DNA from: Squalus acanthias
Taxonomy: Eukaryota
NCBI GenBank assembly: GCA_030390025.1
Contig: CM059432.1
Span: forward strand, 49,726,001 to 49,790,000
DNA: 64,000 nucleotides
Reading direction: 5' to 3'
Part shown: positions 25,888-63,467 of the stretch, piece by piece
Numbering within the stretch: the stretch's first letter is position 1
Layout of the letters: each line of letters starts with the position of its first letter
Notes under the pieces: generated by a model
The model's input: only the letters and a program-made list of their open reading frames with translations
The model's database searches: none
Told to the model about the DNA's origin: nothing
Translations under genes and position numbers: made by a program

Positions 25888-27686
25888 GGGGGGTGATTTC
25901 CCCCAGTTACTTTAGGCGCTAAAGAGCCTCTGAGGTAGCCAAGATGGGGTCTTGAGCTGCAACGTCAGTTTAACCCACGTTTAGTGCAAAATACCATCTT
26001 AAGAACATAAGAAATAGGAGCAGGAGTAGGCCATACAGCCCCTCGAGCCTGCTCCGCCATTCAATAAGATCATGGCTGATCATCGATCTCAACTCCACTT
26101 TCCCGCCTGATCTCCATATCCCTTGATTCCCCTAGAGTCCAAAAGTCTATCTATCTCAGCCTTGAATATACTCAAAGACTCAGCATCCACAGCCCTCTGG
26201 GGCAGAGAATTCCAAAGGATCACAACCCTCTGAGTGAAGAAATTCCTCCTCATCTCAGTCTTAAATGGCCTACCCCTTATCCTGAGACTATGCCCCCTAG
26301 TTCTAGACTCTCCAGCCAGGGGAAACAACCTCTCAGCATCTACCCTGTCAATCCCCTTCAGAATCTTGTATGTTTCAATGAGATCACCTCTCATTCTTCT
26401 GAACTCCAGAGAGTATAGGCCCATTCTACACAATCTCTCATCATAGGACAGCCCTCTCATCCCAGGAATCAATCTAGTGAACCTTCGTTTCACCGCCTCC
26501 AAGGCAAGTATATCCTTCCTTGGATAAGGAGACCAAAACTGTGCACAGTACTCCAGGTGTGGTCTCACCAAGGTCCTGTATAATTGTAGCAAGACTTCCT
26601 TACTCTTATACTCCAACACCCTTGCAATAAAGGCCAACATGCCATTTGCTTTCCTTATTGCTTGCTGTACCTGCATGCTAGCTTTCTGTGTTTCTTGCAC
26701 GAGGACACCCAAATCTCTCTGAGCTCCAAAGTTTCTCACCATTTAAAAAATGTTCTGTTTTTCTATCTTGTTAAAGGAGTTGAAGTGCGTGCTAGGAACG
26801 GCTGCCCCGAGGATTGTTAAGACTCTGATTGACAATTAAATTGTCTGCTAGCACTCAATAAAGAGTCTGCATTATATTTTGGTGGCTAATGATTCAATTA
26901 TCATCCTCTCCTAACAGCAATCAGCTGAACAGGAGTAAAGACGTCATTACTGAGGATTTCAAGCGCTACTTAAAGGTACGCTCAGCTTTCACTGTTCACT
27001 TGCTTGAAGAGCACGTTTGAGACACATCGGGAGACTGTCTGGGACACTTTGTCAAGACTTCACCAACACACTATCAACATTTATTCTGAAAATTCTCTAA
27101 GGACTTCACCTAAAGAGAGTGAGTGCTGTGCTACTCTACCTTATTGGGGACCTAATAGGAGTCACCAGGAGAAAGGGAGTGCATGGTCACGGGGATCTTG
27201 CTAGGGGTCCCTCCTGGTCTGGAGGAGGAATGGGAGGAGGACATAAGGCCAGGCAGGGCAGCACCAGCTGCTGCAGAAGAGAGGGACAGGAGGACGGGGT
27301 GGACTTCTTCCCCTGCGGGAACTGGACATCACTCCTACTCTGGACCTCTTCCAGCAGGACCTCCAGTGCAGCTTCTGAGAATCTGTGTGCCCTTTCCCTC
27401 GCTCCCTGAGCCATCCTGAAACGTGCCGTTGTGTGTCAGTGAGCGCACTCCGCACCTTCAGTGGAAGTGGGTGCATGGAGGCTACATATATTGCTCCACA
27501 AAAATTGCTTCTAATCAGTGCTAGACCTGTAGATGTCTGTTTTAGCGCCTACAGCCAAGTTTAAATCATGGTAACCAGCAATTAGCCCCAAAATTATGTG
27601 CTAAACCAGACTTTCAAACAGACGTGTCTTATTAGCACAGCACCCACTTAGTGCTTGTTTTCACTCAGTCCCCAAAATAACCACCC
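25888..27686. mobile_element. Internally deleted Harbinger (transposase 5' remnant + fused to Myb 5' remnant -), containing a CR1 insertion
   Basis: Imperfect TIRs GGGGGGTGATTTC / AAAATAACCACCC. MAQGARERAHRFSEAALEVLLEEV (27414, -) is the Myb start. An acidic/Arg-rich transposase-like start lies at 27183 (+). Confidence 0.7.
26001..26765 (-). mobile_element. CR1 3' fragment
   Basis: ORF 26089-26742 (RT C-terminal region), (TTCTTATG)-type tail, and ATCTT on both flanks. Confidence 0.9.
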
Positions 27687-28659: not shown

Positions 28660-29075
28660 TCCTAAAATGAATTTGGCCTTTTTTATGGCTTTATCTTCTT
28701 GCACTCGCACTTCAGGGCATTATGTACTTGAACCTCAGGTCACTTTGTTCAACCATACCTTTCAGCATCTTCCTATTGAGTGTAAACACACATTTCTTGT
28801 TTTTTTTTCTCCCAAAATGTATTACCTCACACTTATCCACGTTAAATTGCATCTATCATCTATCTGCCCATTCCACTAACCTGTCTGTCTTCCTGAAGTC
28901 ATTTATAGCCCTGCTTGCTGTCTAACAAATCTTCTACTTTCATCTGAACAGCACATTCTGAGATTGTTTCCCTCTGCCCAAGTCCAAAACACTCTCTCAC
29001 CACTTCCAGTTAATCTCCAATCTGAACAGCACTCATTTACACTAACTCCTTGTTTCCTGTCTGTCAACCAACCTT
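28660..29075 (-). mobile_element. Ancient CR1 fragment
   Basis: WLTDRKQGVSVNECCSDWR and a degraded W.D.WQM.FNVDKCEVIHFG. Confidence 0.65.
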
Positions 29076-30850
29076 GGCAGTTTTCCACATTGTCGGATAG
29101 ATGCCAGTGTTGTAGCTGCACTGGAACAGCTTGGCTAGAGGTGTGGCTAGTTCTGGAGCACATGTCTTCAGCACGATAGCCGGGATGTTGTTGAGGCCCA
29201 TAGCCTTTGCTGTATCCAGTGCACTCAGCCGTTTCTTGATATCATGTGGAATTAATCAAATTGGCTGAAGACTACCTTCTGTGATGGTGGGGACCTCGGG
29301 AGTAGGCCGATATGGATCATCCACTCGGCACTTCTGGCTGAAGATGGTTGCAAACGCTTCAGCCTTGTCTTTTGCACTCACGTGCTGGGCTCCACCATCA
29401 TTGAGGATGGGGATATTCATGGAGCTTCCTCCTCCGACTTGTTGTTTAATGGTCCACCACCATTCACGACTGGATGTGACAGGACTGCAGAGCTTTGATC
29501 TGATCCGTTGATTGTAGGATCACTTAGCTCTGTCTATAGCATGCTGCTTCTGCTTTTTAGCATGCATGTAGTCCTGTGTTGCAGCTTCCCCAGGTTGGCA
29601 CCTCATTTTTAGGTACGCCTGGTGCTGCTCCTGGCATGCTCTTCTACACTCTTATTGAACCAGGGCTGGTCCCCTGGCTTGGTGGTAATGGTAGAGTGAG
29701 GGATATGCCTGGGCCATGAGGTTACAGATTGTGGTGGAATACAATTCTTCTGATGCTGATGGCCCACAGCGCCTCATGGATGCCTAGTTTTGAGCTGCTA
29801 GATCTGTTCTGAATCTATCCCATTTAGCACGGTGGTAGTGCCACACAACAGGATGGAGGGTGTCCTCAGTGTAAAGATGGGACTTTGTCTCCACAATGAC
29901 TGTGCTACCAATGCTGTCATGGACAGATGCATCTGCGACAGGTAGATTGGTGAGGACGAGGTCAAGCAGGTTTTTCCCTCGTGTTGGTTCTCTCACCACC
30001 TGTTGCAGGCCCAGACTGGCAGTTATGTCCTTCAGGACTCGGCCAGCTCGGTCAGTAGTGGTGCTACTGAGCCACTCTTGGTGATGGACATTGAAGTCCC
30101 CCACCCAGAGTACATTCTGTGCCCTTGCTACTCTCAGTGCTTCTTCCAAGTGGTGTTCAACATGGAGGAGTACTGATTCATCAGCTGAGGGAGGGCAGTA
30201 GGTGGTAATCAACAGGAGGTTTCCTTGCCTATGCTTGACCTGAAGCCTTGAGACTTCATGGGGTCCGGAGTCAATGTTGAGGACTCCCAGGGCCACTCCT
30301 TCCGACTGTATACCACTGTGCTGCCACCCCTGGTGGGTCTGTCCTGCCGGTGGTACAGGACATACCCAGGGATGGTGATGGAGAAGTTTGGGACATTGGC
30401 TGAAAGGTATGATTCTGTGAGTATGACTGTCAGGCTGTTGCTTGACTAGTCTGTGGGACAGCTCTCCCAATTTTGGCACAAGTCCGCAGATGTTGGTGAG
30501 GAGGACTTTGCAGGGTTGACTGGGCTGGGTGTGCCGTTGCCGTGTCCATAGCCAGTGCCGAGGTCGATGCCGGATGGTTTGTCCAGTTTCATTCTTATCT
30601 TTCGTAGCGGTGAGTTACAACTAAGTGACTTGCTAGACCATTTCAGAGGGCAGTTAAGAGTCAAACACATTGCTGTGGTTCTGGAGTCACATATAGGCCA
30701 GACCGGGTAAGGACGGCTGATTTCCTTCCCTAAAGGACATTAGTGAACCAGATGGGTTTTTACGACAATCCGATAGTTTCATGGTCACCATTACTGATAC
30801 TAGCTTTTTATTCCAGATTTATTTAACTGAATTTAAATTCCCCAGCTGCA
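29076..30850 (-). mobile_element. 5' half of the ORF1-less CR1/L2-superclade LINE (UTR + APE + linker), 3' part missing
   Basis: PKLGELSHRLVKQQPD..WVGDFNVHH..EPTRGKNLLDLVLTN APE motifs. Same family as 50440-63540. Confidence 0.85.
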
Positions 30851-33831: not shown

Positions 33832-35401
33832 AATAGAAAAAGATAGGAGTAGGAGTAGGCCATTCAGCACCTCGAGCCTGCTCTGCCATTTAATGAGATC
33901 ATGGCTGATCATCCAAATTCAGTACCCTGTCCCTGCTTTCTCCCCATATCCCTTGATCCCTTTAGCCTTAAATATATCTAACTCCTTCTTGAATATATTT
34001 AATGAATTGGCCCCAACTGCCTTCTGTGGTAGAGAATTCCACAGGTTCACCACTCTCTGGGTGAAGAAATTCCTCCTCATCTCAGTCCTAAATGGCTTAC
34101 CCTTTATCCTTAGACTGTGACCCCTGGTTCTGGACTCCCTGCCATCAGGAACATCCTTCCTGCATCTAGTCTGTCTAGTCCTGTTAGAATTTTAAGTTTC
34201 AATGAGATCCCCTCTCATTCTTCTAAACTCTAGCAAATACAAGCCCAATCGTCCCAATCTCTCTTCATAAGTCATTCCTGCCATCCCAGGTATCAGTCTG
34301 GTGAATCTTCGCTGCACTCCCTCCATGGCAAGAACATCCTTCCTCAGATAAGGTGACCAAAACTGCACACAATACTCAAGGTGTGGTCTCACCAAGGCCC
34401 TGTACAACTGCAGCAAGACATCCTTGCTCCTGTACTCGAATCCTCTTGCTATGAAGGCCAACATACCATTTGCCTTCTTAACTGCCTGCTGCACCTGCAT
34501 GCTTACCTTCAACGACTGGTGCACAAGGACTCCCAGGTCTCGTTGCACTTCCCCTTTTCCCAATCTATTGCCGTTCAGATAATCTGCCTTCCTGTTTTTG
34601 CCACCAAAGTGGATAACCTCGCATTTATCCACATTATACTGCATCTGCCATGCATCTGCCCAATCACCCAACTTGTCCAAATCATACTGGAGTTTCTCTG
34701 CATCCTCCTCACAACACACACGCCCACCCGCTTTGTCATCTGCAAACTTGGAGATATTACATCTAGTTCCCTCGTCTAGATTATTAATATATATTGTGAA
34801 TAACTGGGGTCCTAGCACCGATTCCTGCGGTACCCCACTAGTCACTGCCTGCCACTCGGAAAAAGACCCGTTTATTCCAACTCTTTGCTTCCTGTCTGCC
34901 AACCAGTTCTCTATCCAAGTCAGTACCTTACCCCCAATCCCATGTGCTTTAACTTTGCACGCTAATCTCTTATGCGGGACCTTATCGAAAGCCTTCTGAA
35001 AGTCCAAATGCACCACATTCACTGGTTCTCCCTTATCTATTCTACCAGTTACATCCTCAAAAAATTCCAGTAGATTAGTCAAGCATGATTTACCTTTTGT
35101 AAATCCATGTTGACTTTGTCCGATCCTGTCACTGTTTTCCAAGTGCTCTGCTATTACATCTTTTATAATGGACTCTAGCATTTTCCCCACTACCAATGTC
35201 AGGCTTACAATTCCCCATTTTCTCTCTACCACCTTTTTTAAATAGTGGGGTTACATTAGCTATCCTCCAATCCATGGGAACTGTTCCAGAGTCTATAGAA
35301 TTTTGGAAGATGACCAGCAATGCACCTACTATTTCTAGGGCCACTTCCTTAAGTACCCTAGGATGTAGATTATCAGGCCCTGGGGATTTATCGGCCTTCA
35401 A
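33832..35401 (-). mobile_element. CR1 3' half (RT)
   Basis: ORFs 34192-35232 and 35129-35401 with SQHGF, DFQKAFDKVPH, FADD. 3' UTR hairpin region matches 220-290. Confidence 0.92.
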
Positions 35402-37921
35402 GACCTTTAATGTTCAAGGAACGTATAATACTATTGATAACATGGATCTGTGTCAATTTTGTGCAATGGTCTCCAAATTAGGGATAAGACCGTCCCCAAA
35501 TCAGGTGGATTCTGTTATTTTCTTTGCTCCATCCTGTAAAACAAAGGAATGTTGAAGAAATTTTAATGTTTTACGGTGTCAGGCCAAGAAATATCAAGTG
35601 ATACATGTCAGGAAGATGGATAAATCCACAAAAGGCTCCGAGGCATGCTCCAAGGCAGCCCTGAGCAGTGTCCAATTCACCTAAGGGAAATTCTACATGA
35701 ATGCCTTGGCTCAAGTAAAAAGAAATTACTCAAAAGATAATTTTGCTCAGATCTAGTGCAAAGAAGCATAGCTCTACCACGATCATGCAGATTCAAGAGG
35801 GATTCAAACTTAAAACAAAAAGGCAAGGTAAAGGCTGATGCAAGTCAATCTCAAAGCTTACATGCAAAACATTGACACTAGTGTTATATCGAGGCAAATA
35901 TGGGTGCATGGATACTGATACCAATAGAGAGTTGCAAGAAAGATAACATGAAGCTTGATGTAATAAATCTCAGATTTAATGCCATAAAAAGTTCTGGTGT
36001 TTGAAATAATTTATGAATCTTTGCTCTGCATTGCAGGACAACTATAGCAATTGGTAGGATTCCTAGAAATTTATTATTGCAAGCTGCTTCAAGCACTTCA
36101 ATGAGATGCTGGGATATGGCTGACCTTGTGCTATCCTGACACTCAGTCAATCCAGCTACAACAACATTGGCATGACAATTCACACTGGTGTTAATAGTAT
36201 GAGGGGTGGTCTGGCAGTTATGTTGGGAGTGTGCACATCGCTGCTCTCCAGTGCTGAATTCACTGGTAGCTTGCAGGGTCAGTAGGAAATCAGTTTATTT
36301 GCATGGGGCTGGCAGGCACCCATGACAATACGGGCCCATCTCGGGCACCCGTCTGGTCAGAAACCCTGGTGCCTGGCCACCATCAGGGAGGAGGTGTCCA
36401 GACTCCTCCCACCCCCTGCCAAGATCCCATAAAGTACACCCCTTGGCCCCATGTGCAATATTTTTAAAGGTGCCCATGTTTGGGGCTCCCCTAACCTGGA
36501 AACCCCTCCCTCCACAGGCCCACCCACCCTCTTGGAGGCTGTTTTAGCTCATCTCACTGGGTATGCCAACCTCTGGTTTTATGCCAAGTCCCTTATGGGC
36601 CAAGGAAGTGGAACTCCCAGCATAGAGAGTCCATGCCCCTGACCCTGCCTTTTCCATGTCACTGGCCTTGATGTTTGGGCATGTAGGACATCAAATGCAA
36701 CCTGAATTTCAGGAAACCACACATTCAGGATTCCTAGGGACTGACTAGTCAAGACAACAGTTCACTTAAATTGGACAGACTGTAAAGTTAAGTTTTTTTT
36801 TAAGGCAATTTTTGATCTTTATTTTCCTGCTGGCACTTAGGCTTTCATAAGCTGCATGTTCTTTATTTATTACTGGCATCGATAGATTTCCAAATGGTAA
36901 TCCACCAAACTGATATATTTAGAAGCCGACGACCTATGGAGGGATGCCAGGCAGGTTAGGCTGCACAAGAATTGCTCTGTGCCCTCCCACTAGTACCTGC
37001 ACACCCATATCTGCAGACATAGGTGAAATTACATCACTGACAGGCATATTGCTGCTCCATCCCTGTAAATTTTCCTTGCGGTTTTCTCTTTTCACCACTG
37101 TGCTCTCTAGATGCATTTAGATCTGCACTTGGACTTGAGTAATTAGACAAATGGACTTATGCTGGAAAATTGAGTGCTATGTGCACTTTCCTATTCCAGC
37201 ATTAGTTCTTAACCATTTTGAACTGAATTACAACCTGTAAATGAAACATACTCCACTATATGAAATATATCTTCAACCATAATTCAGTGCTTTGTCTAGA
37301 TGTTGCCTCAGTGGTAGGACTGTATGAGGTGTCTGGCTACTGTGTGTAAATAGGAGCCTCTTAAGATTGAAGTCTTCCTTGCCTCACATCCAGTAAATGG
37401 TACAGGCTGTGACACTTTTGCTATGGCATTGGCAGCCTGGGCCTCCATGTTTTTTTTGCACTTGTGCAAGTATAAGATGAGGCTGGTTGGAGGGTCCAGA
37501 TATGTTGGCATGCTGAGAAATAGCAGCATCGTTCATGCCTATGCTATTGGGCATTACCTTACTATGGCTACTGATCAGCAGTCCTAATGGCACCAATGAG
37601 ATCAGTGAAACCCTGCCTTGTGGTTCTCCCTAACTAATTCATATGCCTGTCAAAGCCAGAAGCAATAGCACGTTCCACTCTGGCATCCCAAGCCTCTGGC
37701 AGCAATCTGAACCTCCTTCCCTTGGGGGTTTTTGCATGGAGAGGCACTGTTGCAGATGTTCCTGGTGTTGCTAACAGCAGTGATGGACTGCAGTGTTACA
37801 AAGCTGTTCAGGATAGCTATGCACACGAGTAGTGGACCCCTCCACATGAGCAGCCAGATGCAGCACACTGTTTCCTAAGACCCTGATGTTTGCAACAAGG
37901 CTTGATGCTCAGTAAGATTCC

Positions 37922-47779: not shown

Positions 47780-48432
47780 AACTCTCTCTCACTCTTCACC
47801 CCTAACTTTTCTGACTCACATTGGCTCCTGGTCCCCCAATGTCGCAATATAAAATTCTCATCTTTGTTTTTAAATATCCATGTCCACACCATTTCATAAC
47901 TAACCTCCTCCAGCCCTACAATCCTCCCCCATCAAACTTCCTGTTTTTCTGACTCTGACCTCTGGTGCATGCCTTCAACCGAACATTGGCTATTGTGATT
48001 TCAGCTATCCGAGGCCCCATGCTCTGTAATTCCCTCCCTAAACCTTACCAACTCAGTACATTCCTCTTCTCTTTTAAGAACCTCCTTAAAAACCCAATCT
48101 CTTTGACCAAGTGCTCAGTCACCCCTCCTAATCTCTCATTACAACAGTGATTACACTTCAAAAAGAGAACTTCATTAGCTGTAAAGCACTTTGGGATGTC
48201 CAGTGGTCATGAAAGGCACTATATAAATGCAAATATTTCTTTTTTAGCTTCCTGTCCAAATTTTCTTATGCCTCAAGAGTCTTGGCACATTTTCTATGTT
48301 AAAAGGTGCTATATAAATGCAAGTTGTTGTAGACTATTTAAAAAGCTGTAAAGAATTAAGTGGTCATAAATCTCATTTGCGCTTTGTGCAAAATGGCTGC
48401 TGCATTTGCCTATATAACAGTCACTGCACTTA
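47780..48432. mobile_element. L2 3' fragment (+) with DeuSINE tail fragments
   Basis: SHWLLVPQ..YKILIFVFK, L2 3' end CTATATAAATGCAAGTTGTTGT at 48309-48330, and DeuSINE tail at 48137-48245. Confidence 0.65.
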
Positions 48433-49534
48433 CATAGATACATAGATACATAGAAGATAGGAGCAGGAGTAGGCCATCCGGCCCTTCGAGCCTGCTCCGC
48501 CATTTAATGAGATCATGGCTGATCCTCCAATTCAGTATCCCGTCCCCGCCTTCTCTCCGTAACCCTTAACCCCTTTTGCCTGTAGAAATATATCTAATTC
48601 CCTCTTAAATATATTTAATGAGCTGGCGTACACTGCCCTCTGTGGCAATGAGTTCCACAGGTTCACCACCCTCTGAGTGAAGAAATTCCTCCTCATTTCT
48701 GTCCTAAATGGTTTAGCCCTTATCCTTAAATTATGTCCTCTAGTTCTGTTCTCACCCGCCAAGGGAAACATTCCTTCTGCATCTAGTCTGTCTAGACCTG
48801 TCAGAATTTTATACACTTCTATGAGGTCCCCTCTCAATCTTCTAAACTCCAGTGTGTACATCCCTAAACTACATAGTCTCTCCTCATAGGTCAATCCCGC
48901 CATTCCTGGTATCAGCCTGGTGAATCGCCGCTGCACCCCCTCCATGGCAAGAACATCTTTCCTCAGATGAGGCGACCAAAACTGTACACAGTACTCGAGG
49001 TGTGGTCTCACCAGTGCCCTGTACAGCTGCAGCAAGGTATCCCTGTTCCTGTATTCCAACCCTTTTGCTATGAAGGCCAGCATACCGTTTGCCTTCTTGA
49101 TCGCCTGTTGCACCTGCATGCTCGCCTTCAGTGACTGGTGTACAAGAACACCCAGGTCGCTCTGTACTTCCCCCTCTCCCAATTTATTGCCATTTAAATA
49201 ATAATTTGCCCTCCCGTTCCTGCACCCAAGGTGGATAACTTCGCACTTGTCCACATTATAGTGCATCTGCCATTTATCCGCCCAATCACCCAGTCTGTCC
49301 AAATCGCTCTGGAGCTTCCTGGTCTCCTCCTCTGAGCCCACCCCCCCTCCTAGTTTAGTGTCGTCTGCAAATTTGGAAATGCTGCATCCGACTCCCTGAT
49401 CCAAGTCATTAATGTAAATTGTGAACAGCTGGGGACCCAGGACAGATCCCTGTGGTACCCCACTTGTTACTGCCTGCCATTCAGAAAATGAGCCGTTTAT
49501 TCCAACTCTCTGTTTTCTATCTGACAGCCAGTTC
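48433..49534 (-). mobile_element. Young CR1 3' fragment, near-identical to 193-1296
   Basis: Intact ORF 48532-49536 and the same octamer tail. About 5 differences seen by eye over about 1.1 kb. Confidence 0.95.
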
Positions 49535-50809
49535 ACTTCATATCATATCTCTCCGAATTGGCATATGCTAAGAGAATATACAAATGCAAGTCATCTTTCC
49601 CCCCCCCCTCTCTGAAGCTATCCAGATCAATATTAGGTAAGAATTAATGCTACTATGGATGGGGCCTTGGGTAAATTTAACACTCTTGGCATACACTGGG
49701 AGTACACATTGAAATATTGGGTGTTGAGAATAGCTTGCTTGTTATGCATCCTGCTTGATTTTACATTCATTAAATTTAATGGATGGCAAATGAAGCAGGC
49801 TGTGTAATAAGCACACCAATATTCTGATATATATTCTTTACATCAGATGCTCTGCACTCGGAGCACAAGTAGAAAATGGTCTCTGTAGAGCTACTTATGT
49901 TTTTTTCCCTCACATCAACAGTATTGAAAATTTGTGATACATGTATGAAGTGATGTTATTGAGTAAGCAATGACATCAGCACATGTATGGTTGCAGATAG
50001 GAAACAGCATTCTGGAAGGCAAAATACCTGTGTTACAGGGTCCTATCATCTCAGAGCCTCCATTCCTCAACAGTAGTCCTTGAACAATCCAAGTTCCAAA
50101 CACCTTTTTCTTAATGCCCAGACCACACAGTATGTCTTTCAGCTCTCCAATTCCCAGCCTCTTTCAACCCTTCCCAATTGACGCTTCCCAATTATGCTCA
50201 CCTGGCTGGGGAAAGTCTCCTCCCACTCAAGGAGAAATTATCTTAAAAGGGGAGGTTCTTAAAGGGGCCAAACCCTTACTCAGGAATCATAACCCTCATC
50301 AGCCTATGGCTGACATATGGGCTCTCAATCATACTGCGACACCTTCTAATATACTTGTTGTTGAGATTATGTTTGAAAATTGTAATAAATTTAAGGTGAT
50401 AATATGGATTATACATTTTGTTTGAAATTTGACTCTTTGACTTTTTTTTATTCGTTCATGGGATGTGGGCGTCGCTGGCAAGGCCAGCATTTATTGTCCA
50501 TTCCTAATTGCCCTTGAGAAGGTGGTGGTGATCCGCCTTCTTGAACCACTGCAGTCCATGTGGTGAAGGTACTCCCATAGTGCTGTTAGTGAGGGAGTTC
50601 CAGGATTTTGACACAGCGACGATGAAGGAACGGTGATATATTTCCTAGTCAGGATGGTGTGTGACTTGGATGGAACTTTTAGGTGATGGTGTACCCATGC
50701 TCCTGCTGCCCTTGTCCTTCTAGGTGGTAGAGGTCACGGGTTTGGGAGGTGCTGTCAAAGAAGCCTTGGCGAGTTGCTGCTATGCATCTTGTATCCATGG
50801 TGCACTGGT

Positions 50810-52373: not shown

Positions 52374-54970
52374 ATCCCCACTTCTGACCCTATGATGGAG
52401 GGAAGTTCGTTGATGAAGCAGTTGAAGATGGTTGGGCCTAGGACACTGCCCTGAGGAACTCCTGCAGCGATATCCTGGGGCTGACATAATTGGCCTCCAA
52501 CAACCACAACCATCTTCCTTTGTGCTAAGTATGACTGGAGAGTTTTCCCCCTGATTCCCATTGACTTAAATTTTGCAAGGGCTCCTTGATGTCACACTCG
52601 GTCGAATGCTGCCTTGATGTCAAGGGCAGCCACTATCACCTCACCTCTGGAATTCAGCTCTTTTTTCCATGTTGGATCAAGGCTATAATGAGGTCTGGAG
52701 CCAAGTGGCCCTGGCGGAACCCAAACTGAGCATCGGTGAGCAGATTATTGGTGAGTAAGTGCCGCTTGATAGCACTGTCAATGACACCTTCCATCACTTT
52801 GCTGATGAGAGTAGACTGATGGGGCGGTAATTGGCTGGATTGAATTTGTCCTGCTTTTTGTGGACAGGGCATACCTAGGCAATTTTCCACATTGTCGGGT
52901 AGATGCCAATGCTGCAGCTGCACTGAAACAACTTGGTTAGAGGCGCGACTAGTTCTGAAGCACAAGTCTTCAGCACAACAGCTGGGATGCTCTCAGGGCC
53001 CATACCCTTTGATATATACAGTGTGCTCAGCCATTTCTTCATATCACATGGAGTGAACCAAATTGGCTGCAGACTGGCTTCTGTGATGGTGGGGACCTCA
53101 GGAGGAGGCCGAGATGGATCATCCACTCTGCACTTCTGGCTGAAGCTGTTTGCGAATGCTTCAGCCTTGACTTTGCACTCATGTGCTAGGCTTCCCCACC
53201 ATTGAGGATGGGAATATTCATGGAGCCTCCTCCTCCTGTTCTTTGTTTAATTGTCCACCACCATTCATGAATGGATGCGCCAGCTCTGCAGAGCTTTGTT
53301 CTGATCCGTTGGTTGTGGGATTGTTTAGCTCTGTCTATAGCATGCTGTTTCCACTGTTTAGCATGTATGTAGTATGTGCTGTAGCTTCACAAGGTTGGCA
53401 CCTCATTTTTAGGTATTACTGGTGCTGCTCCTGGCATGCTCTTCTACACTATTCCTTTCTTGATGGTAATGGTAGCCTGAGGGATATGCCAGGCCATGAT
53501 GCTACAGATTGTGGTGGAGTACAATTCTATTGCTGCTGATGGCCCACAGTGCCCCATGGATGCCCAGTTTTGAGCTGCTAGATCTGTTCTGAATCTATCC
53601 CATTTAGCACGGTGGTAGTGCCACAAAACACGATGGAGGGTGTCCTCAGTGTGAAAACGGGACTTTGTCTCCACAAGTACTGTGCGGTGGTCACTTCTAC
53701 CAATGCTGTCATGGACAGAGGCATCTGCGACAGGTAGATTGATGAGGACGAGGTCAAGTAGGTTTTTCCCTCGTGTTGGTTCTCTCACCACCTGTCGCAG
53801 GCCCAGTCTGACAGCGATGTCCTTCATGACACGCCCATTTCATTCAGTAGTCGTGCTACCAAGCCACTTTTGGTGATTGACATTGAAGTCCCCCACCCAG
53901 AGTCCGTTTTGCTACCCTCAGTGCTTCTTCTAAGTGGTGTTCAACATGGAGGAGTACTGATTCATCAGCTGAGGGAGGGTGGCAGGTGGTAATCAACAGG
54001 CGGTATCCTTGCCAGTGTTTGACCTGATACCATGAGATTTCATGGGGTCCGGAGTCAATGTTGAGGACTCCCAGGGCCACTCCCTCTCGACTGTGTACCA
54101 CTGTGCTGCCACCTCTGGTGGGTCTGTGCTGCCGGTGGGATAGGACATACCCAGGGATGGTGATGGAGGAGTTTGGGACATTGGCTGAAAGATATGATTC
54201 TGTGGGTATGACTATGTCAGGCTGTTGCTTCACTAGAATAAAAACAGAAAATTCTGAAAATACTCAGTAGCTCAGCTTGACTTGTCTGTGGGACAGCTCT
54301 TACAATTTTGGCACAAGTTCTCAGATGTTAGTGAGGAGGACTTTGCAGGGTCGACTGGGCTGGGTGTGCCGTTGTCGTATCTGGTGTCTAGGTTGATGCC
54401 GGGTGGTCCGTCCAGTTTTATTCTTAGTATACGTCTCTGTAGTAGTTTGGTACAACTGAGTGGCTTGCTGGGCCATTTCAGAGGTCAGTTAAGAGTCAAC
54501 CACATTGCTGTGGGTCTGGAGTCACATATAGGCCAGACCAGATAAGGACAGCAGATTTCCTTCCCTAAAGAACATTAATGAACCAGATGGGTTTTTATGA
54601 CAAGGCTGCCATTACTTTTATTATTTTATTACTTTTTATTCCAGATTTATTTAATTGAATTTTAATTCGCAGCAACCATGCTGGGATTTGTACTCATCAG
54701 GCTGGATTTTGCCATTGGGGGCGGGTCAGGTGGTTGGCGGTTCCCGCTCCCGCCTCCCATGTCAGGCGGGATAATTTAGCGATTTTGCCCTAATTGGGCA
54801 CTTGATTCCCAGCGTGTGCGAACCCCTGGCCCAATGATTCTTTTGGTCCTGAAACTCGCCTCTGATTATGTCATTTATGCAGCTGCATTTAAGGCCTGCA
54901 AGCAGCCTTGGTTCATTTTCTGCCTTATAACTTTTATTTGGCATTGTTCTGAGGGATTTGTGCTGCGGAG

Positions 54971-56901
54971 ATGTCAACTTCAAGGTCCAAGGCCGCACCC
55001 CATTTTGATGAGGACTCCCTCCATGCTCTGGTGGAGGGAGCCAGAGCTCAGAAGGAGGTGTTGTTTCCTTCCTCTGGGAGGAATAAACCTCCCCAGCAGA
55101 CCAAAGCTGTGTGGCTGCAAGAGGTCAGTGCAATATCAATGTGCAGCAGAACCTGGCTGCAGTGCAGAAAGAGGTTTAATGACCTTCTCTGCACAGGAAA
55201 AGTGAATATGGCATCACCATGACCCTCAATCTGATCCCCATCGCCTCTCATGACCAGCACTCTGCATTGTCAACCTCCTCCTCCACATCCCACTTGACCC
55301 TTACATCCCTTTCACCCTTAACCATTCCCTCTCTCTCTATGTACACATTCACTTAACTATTTGACTATGCTGCCCTCACACTCCCTATCACTGTTATGCT
55401 ATGATAACAACTTAAAACACACAGGGTCTTGGGACCTCACTCCATCTTTGTGTCCTTCTAAGCATCTATGCTATGGATTCTCTACACTTATCCATCATTC
55501 TCACTCAAACTCCACTTGCGTCCCTCATTGCAGGAAAAGAGAGCCCACAATAAGAGGGAAAGGGCGAAGACAGGAGGATGGCCACCCTCAATAGCCCAGC
55601 TCACCAGAGCAGAGGAGGTGGCCCTCAAGATCGTGGGAGCCGAGGAGGATGTGCAAGTGGGGGATGGACGGACGGGCGCCTCAGAGCAAGCTGGTGACAG
55701 AATAATTTTCCATCTCTCTCATTTACATTGCATGAGTGACTGATATTGATTCTGATGCTCTAACAGATTGACTTATGATGATCTGCACAATTCGATGTGC
55801 ATGCAACATTTATCACATGTCTAACTTTTTCCTTTACTCCCCCACAGGACCATCGACAGCCCCCCTCCCCACTGTCCAGGAGGAACAGCCTGAGCCAGAA
55901 GACTCCACAGAGGAAGCTGTAACCTTTGAGGGTGCAGCATCACCAGAATTAAGCGCACCCAGCACCAGCGCAGACACTCACACTTCGGTGGGACCTTCGG
56001 AAGATAGAGTAGTATTGTCACCTGGTGTATCACAACTCACAAGTGAGCATCAGCAGATGGTGGAGACAGGGACAGCAGTGGAGAGTCGTTGTCGGAGGCC
56101 GCAGGGCGCTCCCAGCTCAGCTCAGCTGCATGTAGACGCTGTGCCTCCGGGTCCATCCAGAAGGAGAGCGGTGCTGGAACTCCAGGGACAAGTGCAGGAG
56201 TCTCTGGCAGGTTTTGTCTCCAGGGTCACTGTGAGTGTGGAGAGGATGGAGGAGTCCATCGCTAACATGAGCAGAGACTTTGTGGAGGCATTGGCACATG
56301 AACGCATCACCACAGAAAGGATGGCTACCATAGAGGAGAGGCTGGCTACGGTAGAGGAGAGGATGGCTACGGCCTGGAGGACCTAAGTCGCCAGGGCCTT
56401 GAAAATATGGTAATTGTTCAGAACAGACTGACATCTCTGGAGGAGCAATGGTCAGCTATTGAGCAGAGAAACCAGAGCTTCATGGAAGTCCTCTGGAGTA
56501 GGACTGCTAGTGCAGAAATGGGTCCTCATGGCCCCCCTGATGAGCAGCAAGGTGCTGTCATGCCACTTGCTAGCTCTGAAGTGGGGCTGACCCATGAGAG
56601 GGATGTTGGTGGCAGACAACAAGGACTTGGTGGCTCCTCTCCAAGCGCTCACACGACCATGCCACTGCAGAGCCCTCGGTCAGAGCCCCACCAGAGTCCT
56701 CACCCAACTGAGATGGGCGTCTCATCCCCTGCACAGCCGCAGGAGCAGCAGACTGTTGGTGAGCCCTCACAGGCTCGCAACCCCAGAGGATGCTCGCCAA
56801 AGTGTCGAGGCAGGAGCAGCATGAAAGTGAGCAAGGGGCCTCCACATCTGCTGAACCCACAGGGGAAGCACCACGTAGGAGCACGCGTAAGAGGAAGATA
56901 A
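54971..56901 (+). pseudogene. Harbinger Myb/SANT-like DNA-binding gene; exons 54971-55201, 55534-55693, 55848-~56901
   Basis: APHFDEDSLHALVEG..WLQEVS..RTWLQCRKRFNDL. Exon 2 EKRAHNKRERAKTGG. GT-AG introns in phases 0 and 1. Reading frame disrupted near 56370-56400. Confidence 0.88.
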
Positions 56902-58421
56902 AGCATAAGTAGTCACAAGGGTAGTCACTTGGGTGTTCTGTTGTGTTTAATTGTAAAATGCCATCCTTGACTGAATGTTATAAAATTAATTGATGGCAAT
57001 CTGTTGAAGTTGTGGGCTGTGTCATTTTGCAAATGGGACTTCCACATTGAGGGCTATGGGTGACTTGGAATTGTCAGTATGGTGGTCAGAGTGATAGGAA
57101 GCCACAGGTTCTTGTCCATTGTCGATGGTGTGGTAAGAAGGTGCGAGACAAATGTGATTGATTGGGCAGCCTAAGCAAATCTGGCCAAGATGAGTGCATC
57201 CCTTGCATCCCGGGCAGCAATGTTCTTGCGTGCTGCTGCCGCTGGTTGATGCGCCTCTGCAAGGTCTTCATTCTCGCTCTCCTACTCCTCCTCCTCCTCC
57301 ACATCCTCATCTGAGGAGGCTATGCGATGAGCCACTTCTACCTCAGGCAGCTGCAAGCCACGATGCTGTGCCATGTTGTGAAGTACACAGCAGACCACGA
57401 TGGTTCTGGAGATCCTGGCTGCTGAGTAGTGCAGGGCTCCACCTGATCTATCAAGGCATCTGAATCGTATCTTCAGCACGCCGATGGTTTGCTCGATAAT
57501 GGATCTGGTGGAAATGTGGCTGGAGTTGTAGCGCTCCTCAGCTTCATTGGATGGCCTGCTGAACGGCATCATTAGCCACATCTTCAGGGGATAGCCCTTG
57601 TCTCCAAGTAGCCATCCGCAAAGTTGGTTTGGTGGACTGAAGAGCGGAGGCACACTAGACTGGCGCAGGATGAACGAGTCATGGCAACTGCCAGGGTACT
57701 TGGCGCAAACATGCAAAATTTCCTTCTTGTGGTTACACACCAGCTGCACGTTGAGGGAATGGAAGCCCTTGTGGTTGACAAAAATACCTGGATTGTGATG
57801 GGGTGCCTTAAGGGCCACATGTGTGCAGTCTACGATGCCCTGCACCTTTGGAAAGCCTGCCATATTAGCAAATCCAATCGCACGCCCGGTTATACTTGCT
57901 TGATCCTTGGAGAAGTTGATGTAATTGTGCGCCTTGGCAAAGAGGGCATCAGTTACCTGTGTGATGCAAGTGTGTGCGGCCGCCTGGGAGTCGCCACTGA
58001 TGTCTGCTGTTGATCCCTGGAATGAGCCTGAAGCAAAAAAGTTGAGAGCGGTGGTGATTTTTACAGCCACTGGTAAGGGGTGTCCACCTGCTCCTCTGGG
58101 CTCCAGGTCTTGCTGCAGCATTGCGCAGATGTCACCCACTACCTCTCACGAAAGTCTGAGCCTCCTTTGGCACTGCTGCTCAGTCATGCTGAGGTAGCTC
58201 ATCCTCTGTTTGTAAACCCTGTTTTGGGGGTATCTCCTGTGGCGACGTCCTTCCCTGCGCTGGCGCCTTCTGGCCTGTGCAGCTTCAGGTGGGTGAGCAG
58301 CAGGTTGGCGCTCCTGTTGTTGCTGCTGCTGTTGGTGCTGCTGTTGTTCAGGGTTATGCTGCTGCCGCGGCTGGTCTTCCTCTGAATCTGATGTCCAGGA
58401 GGAAAGGAAATAAATGGTTCC

Positions 58422-58636
58422 TGTCATAAATCGCAAGTAACAACTCAGGAAGTACTACTGGGCGGCCAGCTGGGGCGCCGTCCAGGGAGTATAAATACTC
58501 AGGCATGGGCCCACCTTGGGCAGAGACAATCTGGAAACAGGAAGCTAGTGACTGCTAACCAGACCTCCATGTTTTGTTACAAGTTGATTAAAGCCTTGCT
58601 TTATGTTCAAGTGCGTAGTGAGTCTTTATTACGTCA
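58422..58636 (+). repeat. 5' LTR
   Basis: TGTCAT..ACGTCA. TATAAATA at about 58490 and ATTAAA at 58587-58592. Identical to the 3' LTR. Confidence 0.96.
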
Positions 58637-58736
58637 ATTTAATCAACTTGATATCGTCTCCACACTTTGGGTGATTCGGAACAACCAGCTGCAACTCGAA
58701 CCACAGAAGGGAACTAGGGCAAGAAACTGATCCATC

Positions 58737-60137
58737 ATGGAAAAACTCCTTAGACCCGCTCGTCTCGACCTGGACCCGAATGCACCTGCGGCAGCGAAGG
58801 TATGGAAGCATTGGTTTCGTACCTTTAGCAACTTTCTTGAAGAATGTGGGGCGGATGTCCCTAATAAGTTACGAATGCTTATCAACTACGTGTCTCCTCA
58901 TGTGTATGATTATATTGAGGACTGTATAGTCTATGACGCTGCTATCGAAATCTTACAGCAGCTATATGTCAAGTCCCCAAATGAAATATTTGCTCGACAC
59001 CTACTGGCCACAACTCGGCAGCAGCCTGGGGAATCACTCGATGAATTTCTCCAGAAACTTCGCAGGCTCAGCAAGGATTGTAACCTTAAAGCAGTTACAG
59101 CTGAACAGTATCAAGAGGAACTAATCCGCGATTCCTTTATCAATGGAATCGCGTCCCCTTTTATACGTCAGCGCCTGCTGGAAAATAAAACCCTCAATTT
59201 ACGGGCTGCTTATGACCAGGCGTGTTCCTTGGACTTGGCCAAGAAAAATGCAGACACTTATCTCCCACCACGTGCATGGGCGGCGGCTATCTCCTTTAAT
59301 GAGTCTTTCGGTAGGTCTCGGGCGGATGCCCCCACTGATGTTGACTCTACTCTAACGGACGACGACCCTACCCTAGAGGCCTTTGCTGATGACGACCCCG
59401 CCCTAGCAGCATCCTGGCAATCAGGAAGAAAGTGTTTCTTTTGTGGAGGGGCGTGCCATCACAGAAAATTTTGCCCGGCTCGTAATGTGACCTGCAATCA
59501 TTGCAGCAAGAAAGGACACTTTTCCAAGGTATGCCAGTCACGGGCCTTTGCTAACAAGAAAGGCCGCTCCTCTAAAGTATACCGGTCGAGAGCTCCTGTT
59601 AGCTTCACAGCTGCTATCTATGGAGCTGCTCCTCCCCCAAGAACTACTGTTAAGGCTACAGTTGCCGAAGGGAAAATTGACCCTCCTCCCATCACGGCTG
59701 TCTTTCCCCAAAGTTTGTCCCATGCAGCCACGAAGGTTTCAGTAAATGGGCACACTCTAAGCGCACTAATCGACTCCTGCAGCTCTGACAGCTTCATTAG
59801 TAAGCGGGCTGTCAACAGGTTAAAACTGCACATTTATCCCTCGGACAGGGAGATTGCAATGGCTCTGACGACTCTGACCACCAATTCTTCTGGCTTCTGT
59901 CTTGTCAACCTCATCCTCAACGGCCGCACGTATCTCTCCACCCGGCTCGGAGTACTCGCAAACTTATGCAGCGATGTACTTCTGGGACAGGACTTCCAGA
60001 AGCAGCACAAGAAGATCACTTTTGAGTTTGGATGGTCAAGGCCGGAGCTTACCATTTCTAAGGTGCCGTTTTGTGCACTCTCGGTGGCCTTACTCGGTGA
60101 ACCCTCCCTGTTTGCCAATCTTCCCCCCCCGCTGTAA
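58737..60137 (+). CDS. gag: Gypsy Gag-protease
   Basis: RQQPGESLDEF capsid motif, two zinc knuckles (CFFCGG..H..C and CNHCSKKGHFSKVC), and protease ALIDSCSSDSFI..LLGQDF. Confidence 0.92.
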   Translation: MEKLLRPARLDLDPNAPAAAKVWKHWFRTFSNFLEECGADVPNKLRMLINYVSPHVYDYIEDCIVYDAAIEILQQLYVKSPNEIFARHLLATTRQQPGESLDEFLQKLRRLSKDCNLKAVTAEQYQEELIRDSFINGIASPFIRQRLLENKTLNLRAAYDQACSLDLAKKNADTYLPPRAWAAAISFNESFGRSRADAPTDVDSTLTDDDPTLEAFADDDPALAASWQSGRKCFFCGGACHHRKFCPARNVTCNHCSKKGHFSKVCQSRAFANKKGRSSKVYRSRAPVSFTAAIYGAAPPPRTTVKATVAEGKIDPPPITAVFPQSLSHAATKVSVNGHTLSALIDSCSSDSFISKRAVNRLKLHIYPSDREIAMALTTLTTNSSGFCLVNLILNGRTYLSTRLGVLANLCSDVLLGQDFQKQHKKITFEFGWSRPELTISKVPFCALSVALLGEPSLFANLPPPL

Positions 60138-62679
60138 ACCCATAGCCACCAAATCGCGGCGCTTTAGCCAAGACGATCGAGCGTTTATTGAGGCGGAAAT
60201 CTCTCGCCTTTTAGTCGACGGTATTATCGAGCCATGTTCATCTCCCTGGCGGGCTCAGGTCGTCATCGTGAGGAATCCCTTAAAACAACATAAAAAACGT
60301 CTGTGTATCGATTATTCGCAGACTATTAATCAATATACCGATCTGGATGCCTACCCGCTGCCACGCATAGATGACATGGTCAACAACCTTGCCAAATACA
60401 AGGTATTCTTGACCTTCGATTTAAAAAGCGCGTACCATCAGGTGCCACTGCAAGACTCCGACAAGAAGTATACGGCCTTTGAGGCCAATGGTCGGCTTTT
60501 CCAGTTTCGCCGCCTTCCATTCGGGGTCACCAATGGGGTGGCCGTCTTCCAACGGGCCATGGATGGCCTAGTCCGGCAAGAGAACTTGACGGATACCTTT
60601 CCGTATTTAGACAATATCACTATTGCCGGCCATGATCAAAAGGAGCATGACGCCAATCTTCAGAGATTTTTTGACGTACTCCGCCGTCGCCACTTAACGT
60701 TAAACGAATCCAAATCGGTGAAGTCGGCGCCATCGGTGAACATTCTTGGCTACTGGGTGGGCAACGGTGTTATTAAACCGGACCCAGAGCGACTTCGTCC
60801 ACTTCAGGAGCTCCCTCCCCCGACGAACCTCGGCTCTCTTCGTCGGGCACTTGGCATGTTTGCTTATTACGCAAAATGGATACCACACTTCTCCGATAAA
60901 ATACAGCCCCTGCTCCATGCGAAGTCTTTTCCATTGGAAGCTACGGCTATTTCTGCCTTCAACCTCCTCAAACGACAGCTGGAGAAAGCCACGCTTCGCT
61001 CCATTGACGAAAATCTTCCTTTTGTGGTCGAATGCGATGCATCGGAGGTGGCGATCTCCGCTACCTTGAATCAAGGTGGCAGACCCGTGGCATTCCTATC
61101 CAGAACCTTGCAGGGTAGCGAGCTCCATTACCCCCCCGTCGAGAAGGAGGCTACGGCCATCATCGAGGCTGTACGCCAATGGGGTCATTTTCTTGCTCGG
61201 CGTCATTTTACGCTTATAACTGACCAGCGCTCTGTGGCCTTCATGTTGGATAACCGGAGGCGCACGAAAATCAAAAATAATAAAATTCAACTCTGGAGGA
61301 TGGAGCTGGCTGCCTTTGGATATACTATCTGTTACCGACCCGGCAAACAGAACGTGGCCCCAGATACCTTCACACGGGCATTTTGCTCCTCAATGTCAAC
61401 GTCGACTCTGGCGGATTTGCATATGGACTTATGCCATCCTGGTGTGACCCGCATGTTGCACTTTGTGCGCTCCAAAAATCTACCATTTTCAACCGAGGAC
61501 GTAAAGAAAACGTGCTCCTCCTGTAGGATTTGTGCAGAATTGAAACCACAATTCTTTCGCCCATCAGATGGCTTACTCATACATGCAATGCAGCCTATGC
61601 AGAGGCTCAGCATAGACTTTAAAGGGCCATTGCCTTCGTCGACAAGGAACACCTACCTACTTACGATGGTGGACGAGTATTCACGCTTTCCCTTCGCCTT
61701 CCCCTGCCCTAATATGCTTACCTCTACGGTAATTAAATGCCTCGATCAGGTCTTTTCCCTTTGCGGGACGGCCAATTTTATCCACACTGATCGGGGTCCC
61801 TCCTTTATGTCGAGTGAACTTAAAAGTTATCTCTCCCAACGGGGAATCGCCTCAAGTAGGACGACACCATATCACCCAATCGGTAACGGACAGGTTGAAC
61901 GATACAATGCCATCATCTGGAACGCTGTCCGTCTGGCACTAAGGTCACGCAACCTACCGGACCAGCAGTGGGAAACGGTGCTCCCCGACGTGTTACACTC
62001 TATCAGGTCTCTTCTCTCCACATCTACTAATGTCACGCCTCATGAGCGATTCTTCAAATTCCGGCGTCGCTCTACACATGGGACGTCTCTACCGTCATGG
62101 TTGGTGGCTCCAGGCCCGGTGCTACTCCGGAGGTTCGTCCGGTCTGCCAAAAACGACCCTCTCGTTGACGAGGTGGAGTTAACGGAGGTAAACCCCACTT
62201 ATGCGCACGTACGGTACCCTGATGGCCGGGAGACCACCGTCTCGCTCCGAGATCTGGCTCCCTGCCCAACCGGTCACACGGGCCCGAATGATGAAGGATC
62301 CCCCGACAATGATATCAACACTCCGCACCCCTATGAAAATGACGCCCCGCTTGGGACATCGGGGGATCTGCCGGCAACGCTACCGGATCAACTCAGGGAG
62401 CTGGACGCTCCCCGTAGGACGGCCACCCGAAACCAGGACGCCGGACAATCTCCAGCCACGACCCGGGATGAGGCCAGCTCAGCACCTGTGGGGACCCGCA
62501 CCCGGAGTCATGATATTCCCAGTCCTCCACAGGATGATCAAGATGACGCGGACTCTACTGACTTACCGGTACGGGCCAAGCGACCCAGGGACCAGGACAC
62601 GGTCCGGGGAGACGTGCCTTCCGGTCACAAGCAGAGAACTAAACGTCTACGGCTATTTTTGGTCCGTCTAGTCCGTTAA
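60130..62679 (+). CDS. pol: Gypsy Pol (RT-RNase H-integrase), +1 frame relative to gag-PR
   Basis: RLCIDY, DLKSAYHQV, LPFGV, YLDN. RNase H CDAS..EKEA..TDQ..PD. Integrase H..H..C..C, IDFKGP, TDRG, VERYN. Confidence 0.92.
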   Translation, partial: RCKPIATKSRRFSQDDRAFIEAEISRLLVDGIIEPCSSPWRAQVVIVRNPLKQHKKRLCIDYSQTINQYTDLDAYPLPRIDDMVNNLAKYKVFLTFDLKSAYHQVPLQDSDKKYTAFEANGRLFQFRRLPFGVTNGVAVFQRAMDGLVRQENLTDTFPYLDNITIAGHDQKEHDANLQRFFDVLRRRHLTLNESKSVKSAPSVNILGYWVGNGVIKPDPERLRPLQELPPPTNLGSLRRALGMFAYYAKWIPHFSDKIQPLLHAKSFPLEATAISAFNLLKRQLEKATLRSIDENLPFVVECDASEVAISATLNQGGRPVAFLSRTLQGSELHYPPVEKEATAIIEAVRQWGHFLARRHFTLITDQRSVAFMLDNRRRTKIKNNKIQLWRMELAAFGYTICYRPGKQNVAPDTFTRAFCSSMSTSTLADLHMDLCHPGVTRMLHFVRSKNLPFSTEDVKKTCSSCRICAELKPQFFRPSDGLLIHAMQPMQRLSIDFKGPLPSSTRNTYLLTMVDEYSRFPFAFPCPNMLTSTVIKCLDQVFSLCGTANFIHTDRGPSFMSSELKSYLSQRGIASSRTTPYHPIGNGQVERYNAIIWNAVRLALRSRNLPDQQWETVLPDVLHSIRSLLSTSTNVTPHERFFKFRRRSTHGTSLPSWLVAPGPVLLRRFVRSAKNDPLVDEVELTEVNPTYAHVRYPDGRETTVSLRDLAPCPTGHTGPNDEGSPDNDINTPHPYENDAPLGTSGDLPATLPDQLRELDAPRRTATRNQDAGQSPATTRDEASSAPVGTRTRSHDIPSPPQDDQDDADSTDLPVRAKRPRDQDTVRGDVPSGHKQRTKRLRLFLVRLVR

Positions 62680-62705
62680 AGGAAGACTGGACTTCCAAAC
62701 CCTTT

Positions 62706-62717
62706 AGGGAGGAAGAA
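62706..62717 (+). other. Polypurine tract
   Basis: AGGGAGGAAGAA directly abuts the 3' LTR TG. Confidence 0.9.
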
Positions 62718-62932
62718 TGTCATAAATCGCAAGTAACAACTCAGGAAGTACTACTGGGCGGCCAGCTGGGGCGCCGTCCAGGGAGTATAAATACTCAGGC
62801 ATGGGCCCACCTTGGGCAGAGACAATCTGGAAACAGGAAGCTAGTGACTGCTAACCAGACCTCCATGTTTTGTTACAAGTTGATTAAAGCCTTGCTTTAT
62901 GTTCAAGTGCGTAGTGAGTCTTTATTACGTCA
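62718..62932 (+). repeat. 3' LTR
   Basis: Identical to 58422-58636 and followed by the GTTCC TSD. Confidence 0.96.
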
Positions 62933-63467
62933 GTTCCCATGCTGCAGGTATATACCTCAGTTGAGGAAGTGCTCAGTCAAGGTGGGGAGAGGGTTTTCCC
63001 AGGAGGTCACAGTGGAGATGGATCTCAGCTTCAACACTTTCAAAATCAGTTGACCTGCAAAAAGTTCTCCAAGACCTGAGAAAAGAAAGTTCTGCCACCT
63101 GCAAATGATCATTGTGGAAAACTCCGTTTTTATGGTGGAGCTGCAGCTCTTAGTAAGCCAACCACTTGTGAACCCGACAGGATTAGCTGGCGTGTTCCAG
63201 GGGAGACGTGCAGCACACGGGAAGTGTGATAAACTCTGAAAGGCCTCTCAAAATGGGATTATAGAGGTACTTAAGTGGTGGTTAAGTGCCTTAAGGGCTC
63301 ATCCCGCCACTTGGAGGCGGAACCGAAACAGAGTCTGCAAGCCCGCCTTTGGGAAAGTTGCGCAGAGGCGGGTTGAAGGCGGGATCTGAGCTCGCCGCCA
63401 TTTTCTGCAACTTTCCTACCTGACCCACCTTCAAACCCGCCTCCTTGGGCCTGGCAAAATCCAGCCC

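Follow-up and report, generated by a model that had tools for sequence, protein, structure and literature searches.

Asparagine at the last catalytic position of reverse transcriptase motif C is the likely inherited state of an animal Gypsy clade that probably primes from its own RNA

The 4.5-kb Ty3/Gypsy element at positions 58422–62932 of the window (the whole 64-kb stretch of DNA analysed here) houses a reverse transcriptase (RT) whose motif C reads YLDN, with an Asn in place of the last Asp of YxDD. Is this Asn an accident of one copy or the inherited state of a lineage, and is it tied to the unusual primer site of the same element? The original prediction had left the choice between a private GAT>AAT mutation and a natural YxDN lineage, and had suspected that the motif and the primer site travel together. 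We find it likely that YLDN is the inherited state of an animal Gypsy clade, whose RT works with two Asp and one Asn and whose reverse transcription is primed by the element's own RNA and not by tRNA.

The features of a Ty3/Gypsy element, TG...CA LTRs, a polypurine tract and a target duplication, are all present. The LTRs (58422–58636 and 62718–62932, + strand) are 215 nt each and 100% identical, as had been claimed, and the insertion is recent. The target-site duplication GTTCC is found at 58417–58421 and 62933–62937, and is supported by an uninterrupted flank in the sequencing runs X1, X2 and X7. A TATA-like sequence, TATAAATA, with a putative promoter role lies at 58490–58497 (+), and the polypurine tract AGGGAGGAAGAA at 62706–62717 (+) adjoins the 3' LTR. 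Gag, with two CCHC knuckles, and the aspartic protease (DSCS at 59772–59783) share an open reading frame at 58737–60137 (+). RT, RNase H and integrase follow in the order typical of Ty3/Gypsy in an open frame at 60136–62679 (+), assigned from Pfam, an alignment to Ty3 and a fold match. The Pfam scan confirms the domain order protease–RT–RNase H–integrase for the element and shows no chromodomain family in the Pol frame. An AlphaFold model with a pLDDT of 90 supports the fold only; the first-ranking Foldseek match is the Ty3 RT structure 4OL8, and the ESM Atlas matches are generic RT clusters.

The motif had been described as lying in an otherwise open Pol. This holds for RT, RNase H and integrase, but the Gag–protease frame closes with a stop and lies in a different frame, with the break at a C run at 60123–60130 (+). 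Sister contigs from X1, X2 and X7 do not have the break, so that it must be either a lesion private to this copy or a fault of the assembly. Full Gag-Pol from the window copy needs a frameshift, and a pattern search places protease and RT in a single ORF in 50 of 120 relatives. The protease motif at 59772–59783 reads DSC and not D(S/T)G. As DSC is also present in 21 of 72 scorable relatives, a second active-site motif appears to be naturally variable in this Gypsy clade.

The element hit a Harbinger-type DDE transposase gene (57282–58416, – strand) at its 5' end; this gene is not part of the element. The Harbinger-type transposon around the insertion is multi-copy, its transposase frame also shifts near 58145, and convergent ORFs at 55772–56901 (+) upstream of the transposase may be its second gene. 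Other dispersed, LINE-like families occupy 194–1805, 19633–21089, 25988–26673, 33838–35409 and 48431–49658, and also 29071–30546 and 52873–54381. The copies at 194–879 and 48431–49116 are 99–100% identical, and these repeats presumably resemble those of cartilaginous fish.

Motif C occupies 60604–60615 (+) as TAT TTA GAC AAT, read in frame as FPYLDNITIAG. In the alignment its YLDN matches the YLDD of Ty3 RT column for column, which confirms the motif as it was first read. The motif A Asp (FDLKSAYHQ, 60418–60420, +) is intact. Four of 23 sequencing runs were compared with the element, and three of them (X1, X2 and X7) contain sister contigs that are about 99.3% identical to it. A raw RNA run with another organism label shows no coverage of the element, which says nothing about its expression. 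The X1 and X2 contigs, for which the list of differences is complete over the piece with the motif, show none within 60604–60615; the X7 contig has none there among the 21 of 22 differences listed. The window copy carries about 31 substitutions relative to the sister contigs, and 15 of 29 coding differences are synonymous (p 0.002–0.05 for a neutral share of 0.25–0.35). Between 66 and 78% of the sequence words of the element are present in 20 runs (X1–X20) with at least six organism labels, and the three compared runs are nearly identical to each other. The closest proteins are 78–85% identical, compared to just 61% for the named cartilaginous-fish members. Recent horizontal spread of the element is possible. 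In run X1, record 5 is a 4325-nt contig in which 62717 is followed by 58422; it is either a circle with one LTR or an assembly artefact in which the two identical LTRs were collapsed.

Asn is the prevailing state among the relatives. The best 120 matches of the RT–RNase H region (59–85% identity) comprise 102 xxDN sequences, 12 xxDD, one YQDS and five that are gapped or not covered at the motif. The xxDN homologues occur in corals, crustaceans and cartilaginous fish, and carriers include Scylla, Palaemon, Macrobrachium, Oratosquilla, Caligus, Paramuricea, Xenia, Actinostola, Hypanus and Scyliorhinus. Among these 120 matches, 52 of the 59 full-length (at least 1140 aa) single-ORF polyproteins are DN. 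The state is fixed within clusters, with N in 60 of 61 covered members of seven DN clusters and D in 28 of 28 members of three DD clusters, as counted from 15 listed members per cluster. At the DNA level, the fourth motif codon in 25 distinct motif contexts is AAC in 12, AAT in 10, GAT in two and GAC in one. A search of viral contigs gave no relatives. Eight loci (L081–L088) place clade members in bacterial metagenome-assembled genomes (Rubritalea, Ekhidna and "bacterium"); these are likely misbinned host DNA.

The distribution of the two states suggests how the Asn arose. In a wider search of 150 rows, those with at least 45% identity comprise 54 xDN and 43 xDD out of 102, compared to no DN and 47 DD out of 48 below 45%. 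A tree of 87 ingroup and 46 outgroup rows, built with the fourth column of motif C removed, separates the ingroup from the outgroup with an SH-aLRT of 99; in it the basal branches carry DD, and DN occurs only within a nested group. The best tree contains 13 changes between N and D, but only one is forced by the starred branches and most fall on weak branches. A tree of the 111 close rows has DD in three distinct nested groups and forces three changes. DN thus appears, from these trees, to have arisen within a wider DD-basal clade and to have reverted to DD at least three times, with many of the switches on weak branches. DD members of the clade are found in insects, spiders and nematodes, and database names of the "K02A2.6-like" type occur among the DD relatives.

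By its tandem CCHC knuckles the clade appears Mag-like. It also resembles the Mag lineage of Gypsy in its short element and single Gag-Pol ORF. Saci2/lennie has a tRNA-type primer-binding site (PBS) and 4-bp duplications; the clade of the window element has 5-bp duplications (seen in L047 and L083 as well as in the window) and lacks a tRNA-type PBS, and identity with Saci2/lennie is ruled out by these two features. A further candidate, Selgy, was rejected as a plant (Selaginella) lineage according to the accessible text of PMC6317226, and the clade label CN1 gave no match in the literature search. The text supplements of PMC6238403, in the portion available, contain none of the motifs searched, and the accessible parts of PMC12471100, PMC2996953, PMC4558846, PMC13524379, PMC3601003 and PMC3587641 have no bearing on the clade.

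The same substitution is costly where it has been engineered. The original prediction stated that such mutants of the second Asp cripple HIV-1 RT and block Ty1 transposition while some polymerase activity is left, and the mutant data are borne out for Ty1 and Ty3 in the accessible text of PMC2148107 and PMC5371799; the corresponding statement for HIV-1 RT rests on the available part of PMC554778. In Ty1, D211N lowers kpol 223-fold, makes the enzyme prefer Mn and abolishes transposition, 5–10% of which is restored by suppressors in RNase H (PMC2148107). In Ty3, D151N and D213N abolish RT activity, D214N is active in vitro with lower processivity, and all three are lethal in vivo (PMC5371799). 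The clade background must, on this analysis, remove the penalty that Asn carries in Ty1 and Ty3. Between the window element and three open-frame relatives (two others with stops were skipped), pS is about 0.9 and pN 0.14–0.23. A conservation set of 203 non-redundant rows (102 N and 101 D) shows the remaining catalytic residues equally conserved in both states: the motif A Asp and the motif D Lys each stand in 101 of the 102 N rows, and the D, E and D of RNase H in 102, 101 and 101 of them. Judged by these substitution patterns, the clade is under purifying selection and DN is a lineage-wide, selected trait. Among the columns listed of the 25 tested, no compensating residue co-segregates significantly with N or D in independent pairs. 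As the clade tolerates both residues, compensation is probably spread over several sites or pre-dates the switch.

The primer site was also predicted to be unusual and self-complementary, and so it is. Positions 58638–58650 (+), where a PBS belongs, start one base past the LTR-terminal CA and are the exact complement of CAAGTTGATTAAA at 58580–58592 (+) within the LTR, giving a 13-bp pairing. This LTR arm, the predicted primer strand, ends in the LTR's sole + strand A(A/T)TAAA hexamer (58587–58592). Scanned on its + strand, the 64-kb window has no second stem of this kind with at least 12 bp after a CA. The PBS lacks a TGG and therefore is not a site for a mature tRNA 3' end, and ARAGORN finds no tRNA gene in the 64-kb window. 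Examination of 26 junctions gave 17 that pair at 12 or more of 13 positions, one that is decayed and eight with no match; these eight are truncated or decayed as far as inspected, and two of them, L011 and L040, show offset stems. LTR pairs confirm the element boundary in the window and in L003, L022, L036, L037, L040, L047 and L083.

In an alignment of 14 junctions, picked for having a stem, 90.5% of the cells pair and 10 of 15 pairs change on both sides. None of 500 shuffles matches the real stem, and slid partners reach at most 47%. In all 14 the partner arm begins exactly one base after the LTR-terminal CA, the next loop-side position is unpairable and there is no TGG. The hexamer is part of the LTR arm in 13 of the 14, and only the 5' LTR is followed by a partner arm. 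The PBS follows its own LTR, pairing at 6.7 of 7 variable positions compared to 4.0 across elements, and the stem length across the clade is 12–15 bp. Since the fold of the 186-nt junction has a z-score of 0.17, the support for the stem comes from covariation and not from folding energy. No Rfam family matches the junction, and no poly(A) tail is found in any locus examined. Some junctions vary. At L036 (2874–2951) and L037 (2589–2666) the LTR arm lies 6–7 nt upstream of AATAAA and the hexamer is unpaired. L052 has nested long inverted repeats with 15–21 bp arms at about 620–770, in the LTR upstream of the usual stem, and an LTR variant in run X7, probably from a sister subfamily, has a change in the pairing arm (58585) and a 4-base insertion in the loop (58607).

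The idea that YxDN and the primer site co-segregate is not supported. Two YLDD loci, L005 and L070, have the stem, and so does L022, which has YQDD elements as its nearest relatives. All 102 N rows fall in a 193-row group with a support of 98, and L027 and L070 branch outside it, although the branch is long and L070 covers 40% of the columns. The survey covers loci with DNA sequence, among which there are no basal DD elements from insects, spiders or nematodes. The stem appears older than DN, because L027 and L070 branch outside the group with all N rows, and appears to outlast its loss, because it is kept in DD elements. The two traits thus seem to be independent.

How else could the Asn be explained? 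If it were a private GAT>AAT mutation or a sequencing error in one copy of a YLDD family, it would keep company with the private frame break and the substitutions that distinguish the window copy from its sisters. The unchanged motif in the sister contigs, the preponderance of DN among the homologues and the use of both Asn codons refute this, and we practically discount it; the other option of the original prediction, a natural YxDN lineage, is what the same three observations support. Alternatively, the DN RTs might have no or almost no catalytic activity, and the DN families might depend for copying in trans on DD relatives, which are present at 66–73% identity; the lethality of the same Asp-to-Asn change for Ty1 and Ty3 transposition, in the papers cited above as far as accessible, would fit such a scheme. 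We regard it as very unlikely, since DN rows conserve the motif A Asp, the motif D Lys and the RNase H residues as well as DD rows do, and pN is much lower than pS. A group of 87 rows, 68 of them N and 8 of them D (support 98), also implies long DN-only descent, and no DD master copy is found among the members of the DN clusters (15 listed per cluster). On this sequence record the DN enzyme very probably works.

For the stem, one alternative is that it does not serve as a primer but only hides the poly(A) signal of the 5' LTR, and that priming is by an unrecognised small RNA, by an internal tRNA fragment or de novo. The hexamer within almost every LTR arm and the restriction of the partner arm to the 5' LTR are what masking would produce, and Ty3 RT is capable of de novo priming in Mn in vitro (PMC10415136, accessible text). 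However, the start of every partner arm one base after the CA, where pairing ends, is the geometry of a primer, the shifted arms of L036 and L037 leave the hexamer free, and the PBS tracks its own LTR and not a fixed host RNA. We therefore consider masking alone unlikely, and self-priming by the clade probable. A further possibility, which the original prediction called a distinct replication chemistry, is that the Asn is adaptive and linked to self-priming, for instance by giving a slower polymerase that suits primer cutting by RNase H. The stem is found in all DN elements with a readable, intact junction, the Ty1 D211N suppressors lie in RNase H (PMC2148107, accessible text), RNase H position 312 has the strongest raw correlation with DN (Asn in 0.90 of DN compared to 0.16 of DD rows), and self-priming might be a permissive background. 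But the stem is also kept in the DD lineages L005 and L070, in L022 beside YQDD and in a branch outside the DN rows, and the position-312 link has a median p of 0.5 in independent pairs. An adaptive tie of this sort is decidedly improbable.

For the preferred reading, a working two-Asp RT in a self-priming clade, we propose the following mechanism. The two metals would be held by the motif A Asp and the first Asp of motif C, and Asn would take the secondary role of the third Asp; this inferred metal binding fits the in vitro activity of Ty3 D214N and the partial rescue of Ty1 D211N. In the transcript, the LTR arm would pair with the PBS and then be cut at the end of the hexamer, in a Tf1-like manner and probably by RNase H. 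The cut would place a 3'-OH one base away from the end of the LTR, from this 3'-OH RT would copy the 45-nt loop, and the stretch just downstream of the hexamer would serve strand transfer. As a by-product, the same pairing would mask the 5' LTR copy of the poly(A) signal, and that copy alone.

The last Asp of YxDD has no settled role: in the accessible literature it is dispensable for chemistry in vitro and essential for transposition of Ty1 and Ty3. Here, natural families at about 70% identity differ at exactly this position and both have spread, which offers comparisons for kinetics, metal use and structure. If the two-Asp RT is efficient, natural matched Asn/Asp pairs can show the purpose of the third aspartate. 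Filters that score YxDN copies as dead would put a large clade of animal elements in the wrong class. The covarying stem probably marks one more origin of priming without tRNA, this one based on the poly(A) signal and lying outside the chromoviruses. In its fullest form the proposal is of an unnamed pan-metazoan Gypsy clade with an undescribed mode of self-priming by a cut after its own poly(A) signal, a stem that serves both to make the primer and to suppress 5' polyadenylation, and a fully efficient two-Asp RT that switches between Asn and Asp. We put this forward tentatively, as something approaching but falling short of an even call.

The best sequence match (E 5e-50) and the fold match are both Ty3 of S. 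cerevisiae, which has the order protease–RT–RNase H–integrase, the TG...CA LTRs, the polypurine tract and the 5-bp duplication in common with the window element. Ty3 differs in that its motif reads YLDD and not YLDN. It also primes with tRNA. Neither YxDN nor a self-priming stem was found for a metazoan non-chromovirus Gypsy clade in the literature searched, mostly open papers and without Repbase. Natural YVDN in BEL/Pao and self-priming in Tf1 are already known, and what is new, as far as the accessible part of that literature goes, is the occurrence of both in this Gypsy clade. The near-invariance of YxDD assumed by the original prediction needs qualifying, as natural YVDN is in print for nematode BEL/Pao elements (PMC554778, PMC9094657, accessible text), which makes YxDN less unprecedented than was implied. 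The nematode elements Cer7–Cer12 have YVDN, with an activity that was stated as undetermined in 2005 (PMC554778), and so does Atlas virus of the Belpaoviridae (PMC9094657). These nematode elements are similar in that they are intact, have identical LTRs and carry a natural Asn at this very position, but BEL/Pao has a triple Cys–His Gag box and a BEL-type RT, whereas the window element has two CCHC knuckles, a Ty3-like RT and no env. The Gypsy DN is nested inside a DD Gypsy clade and therefore has an origin independent of BEL/Pao. For the primer site, the closest parallels are Tf1/Tf2, the Tf1/sushi and Tcn1 chromoviruses and the TAR copia lineage, in which the PBS is complementary to the element's own LTR in place of a tRNA site (PMC6317226, accessible text), as in the window element; the self-priming mechanism of Tf1 is described in the available part of PMC7175516. 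Unlike Tf1/sushi chromoviruses, which carry an integrase chromodomain, the Pol of the window element has none in Pfam, and, unlike in Tf1, its LTR arm probably sits some 60 nt away from the cap, provided that the TATA-like box is the one in use.
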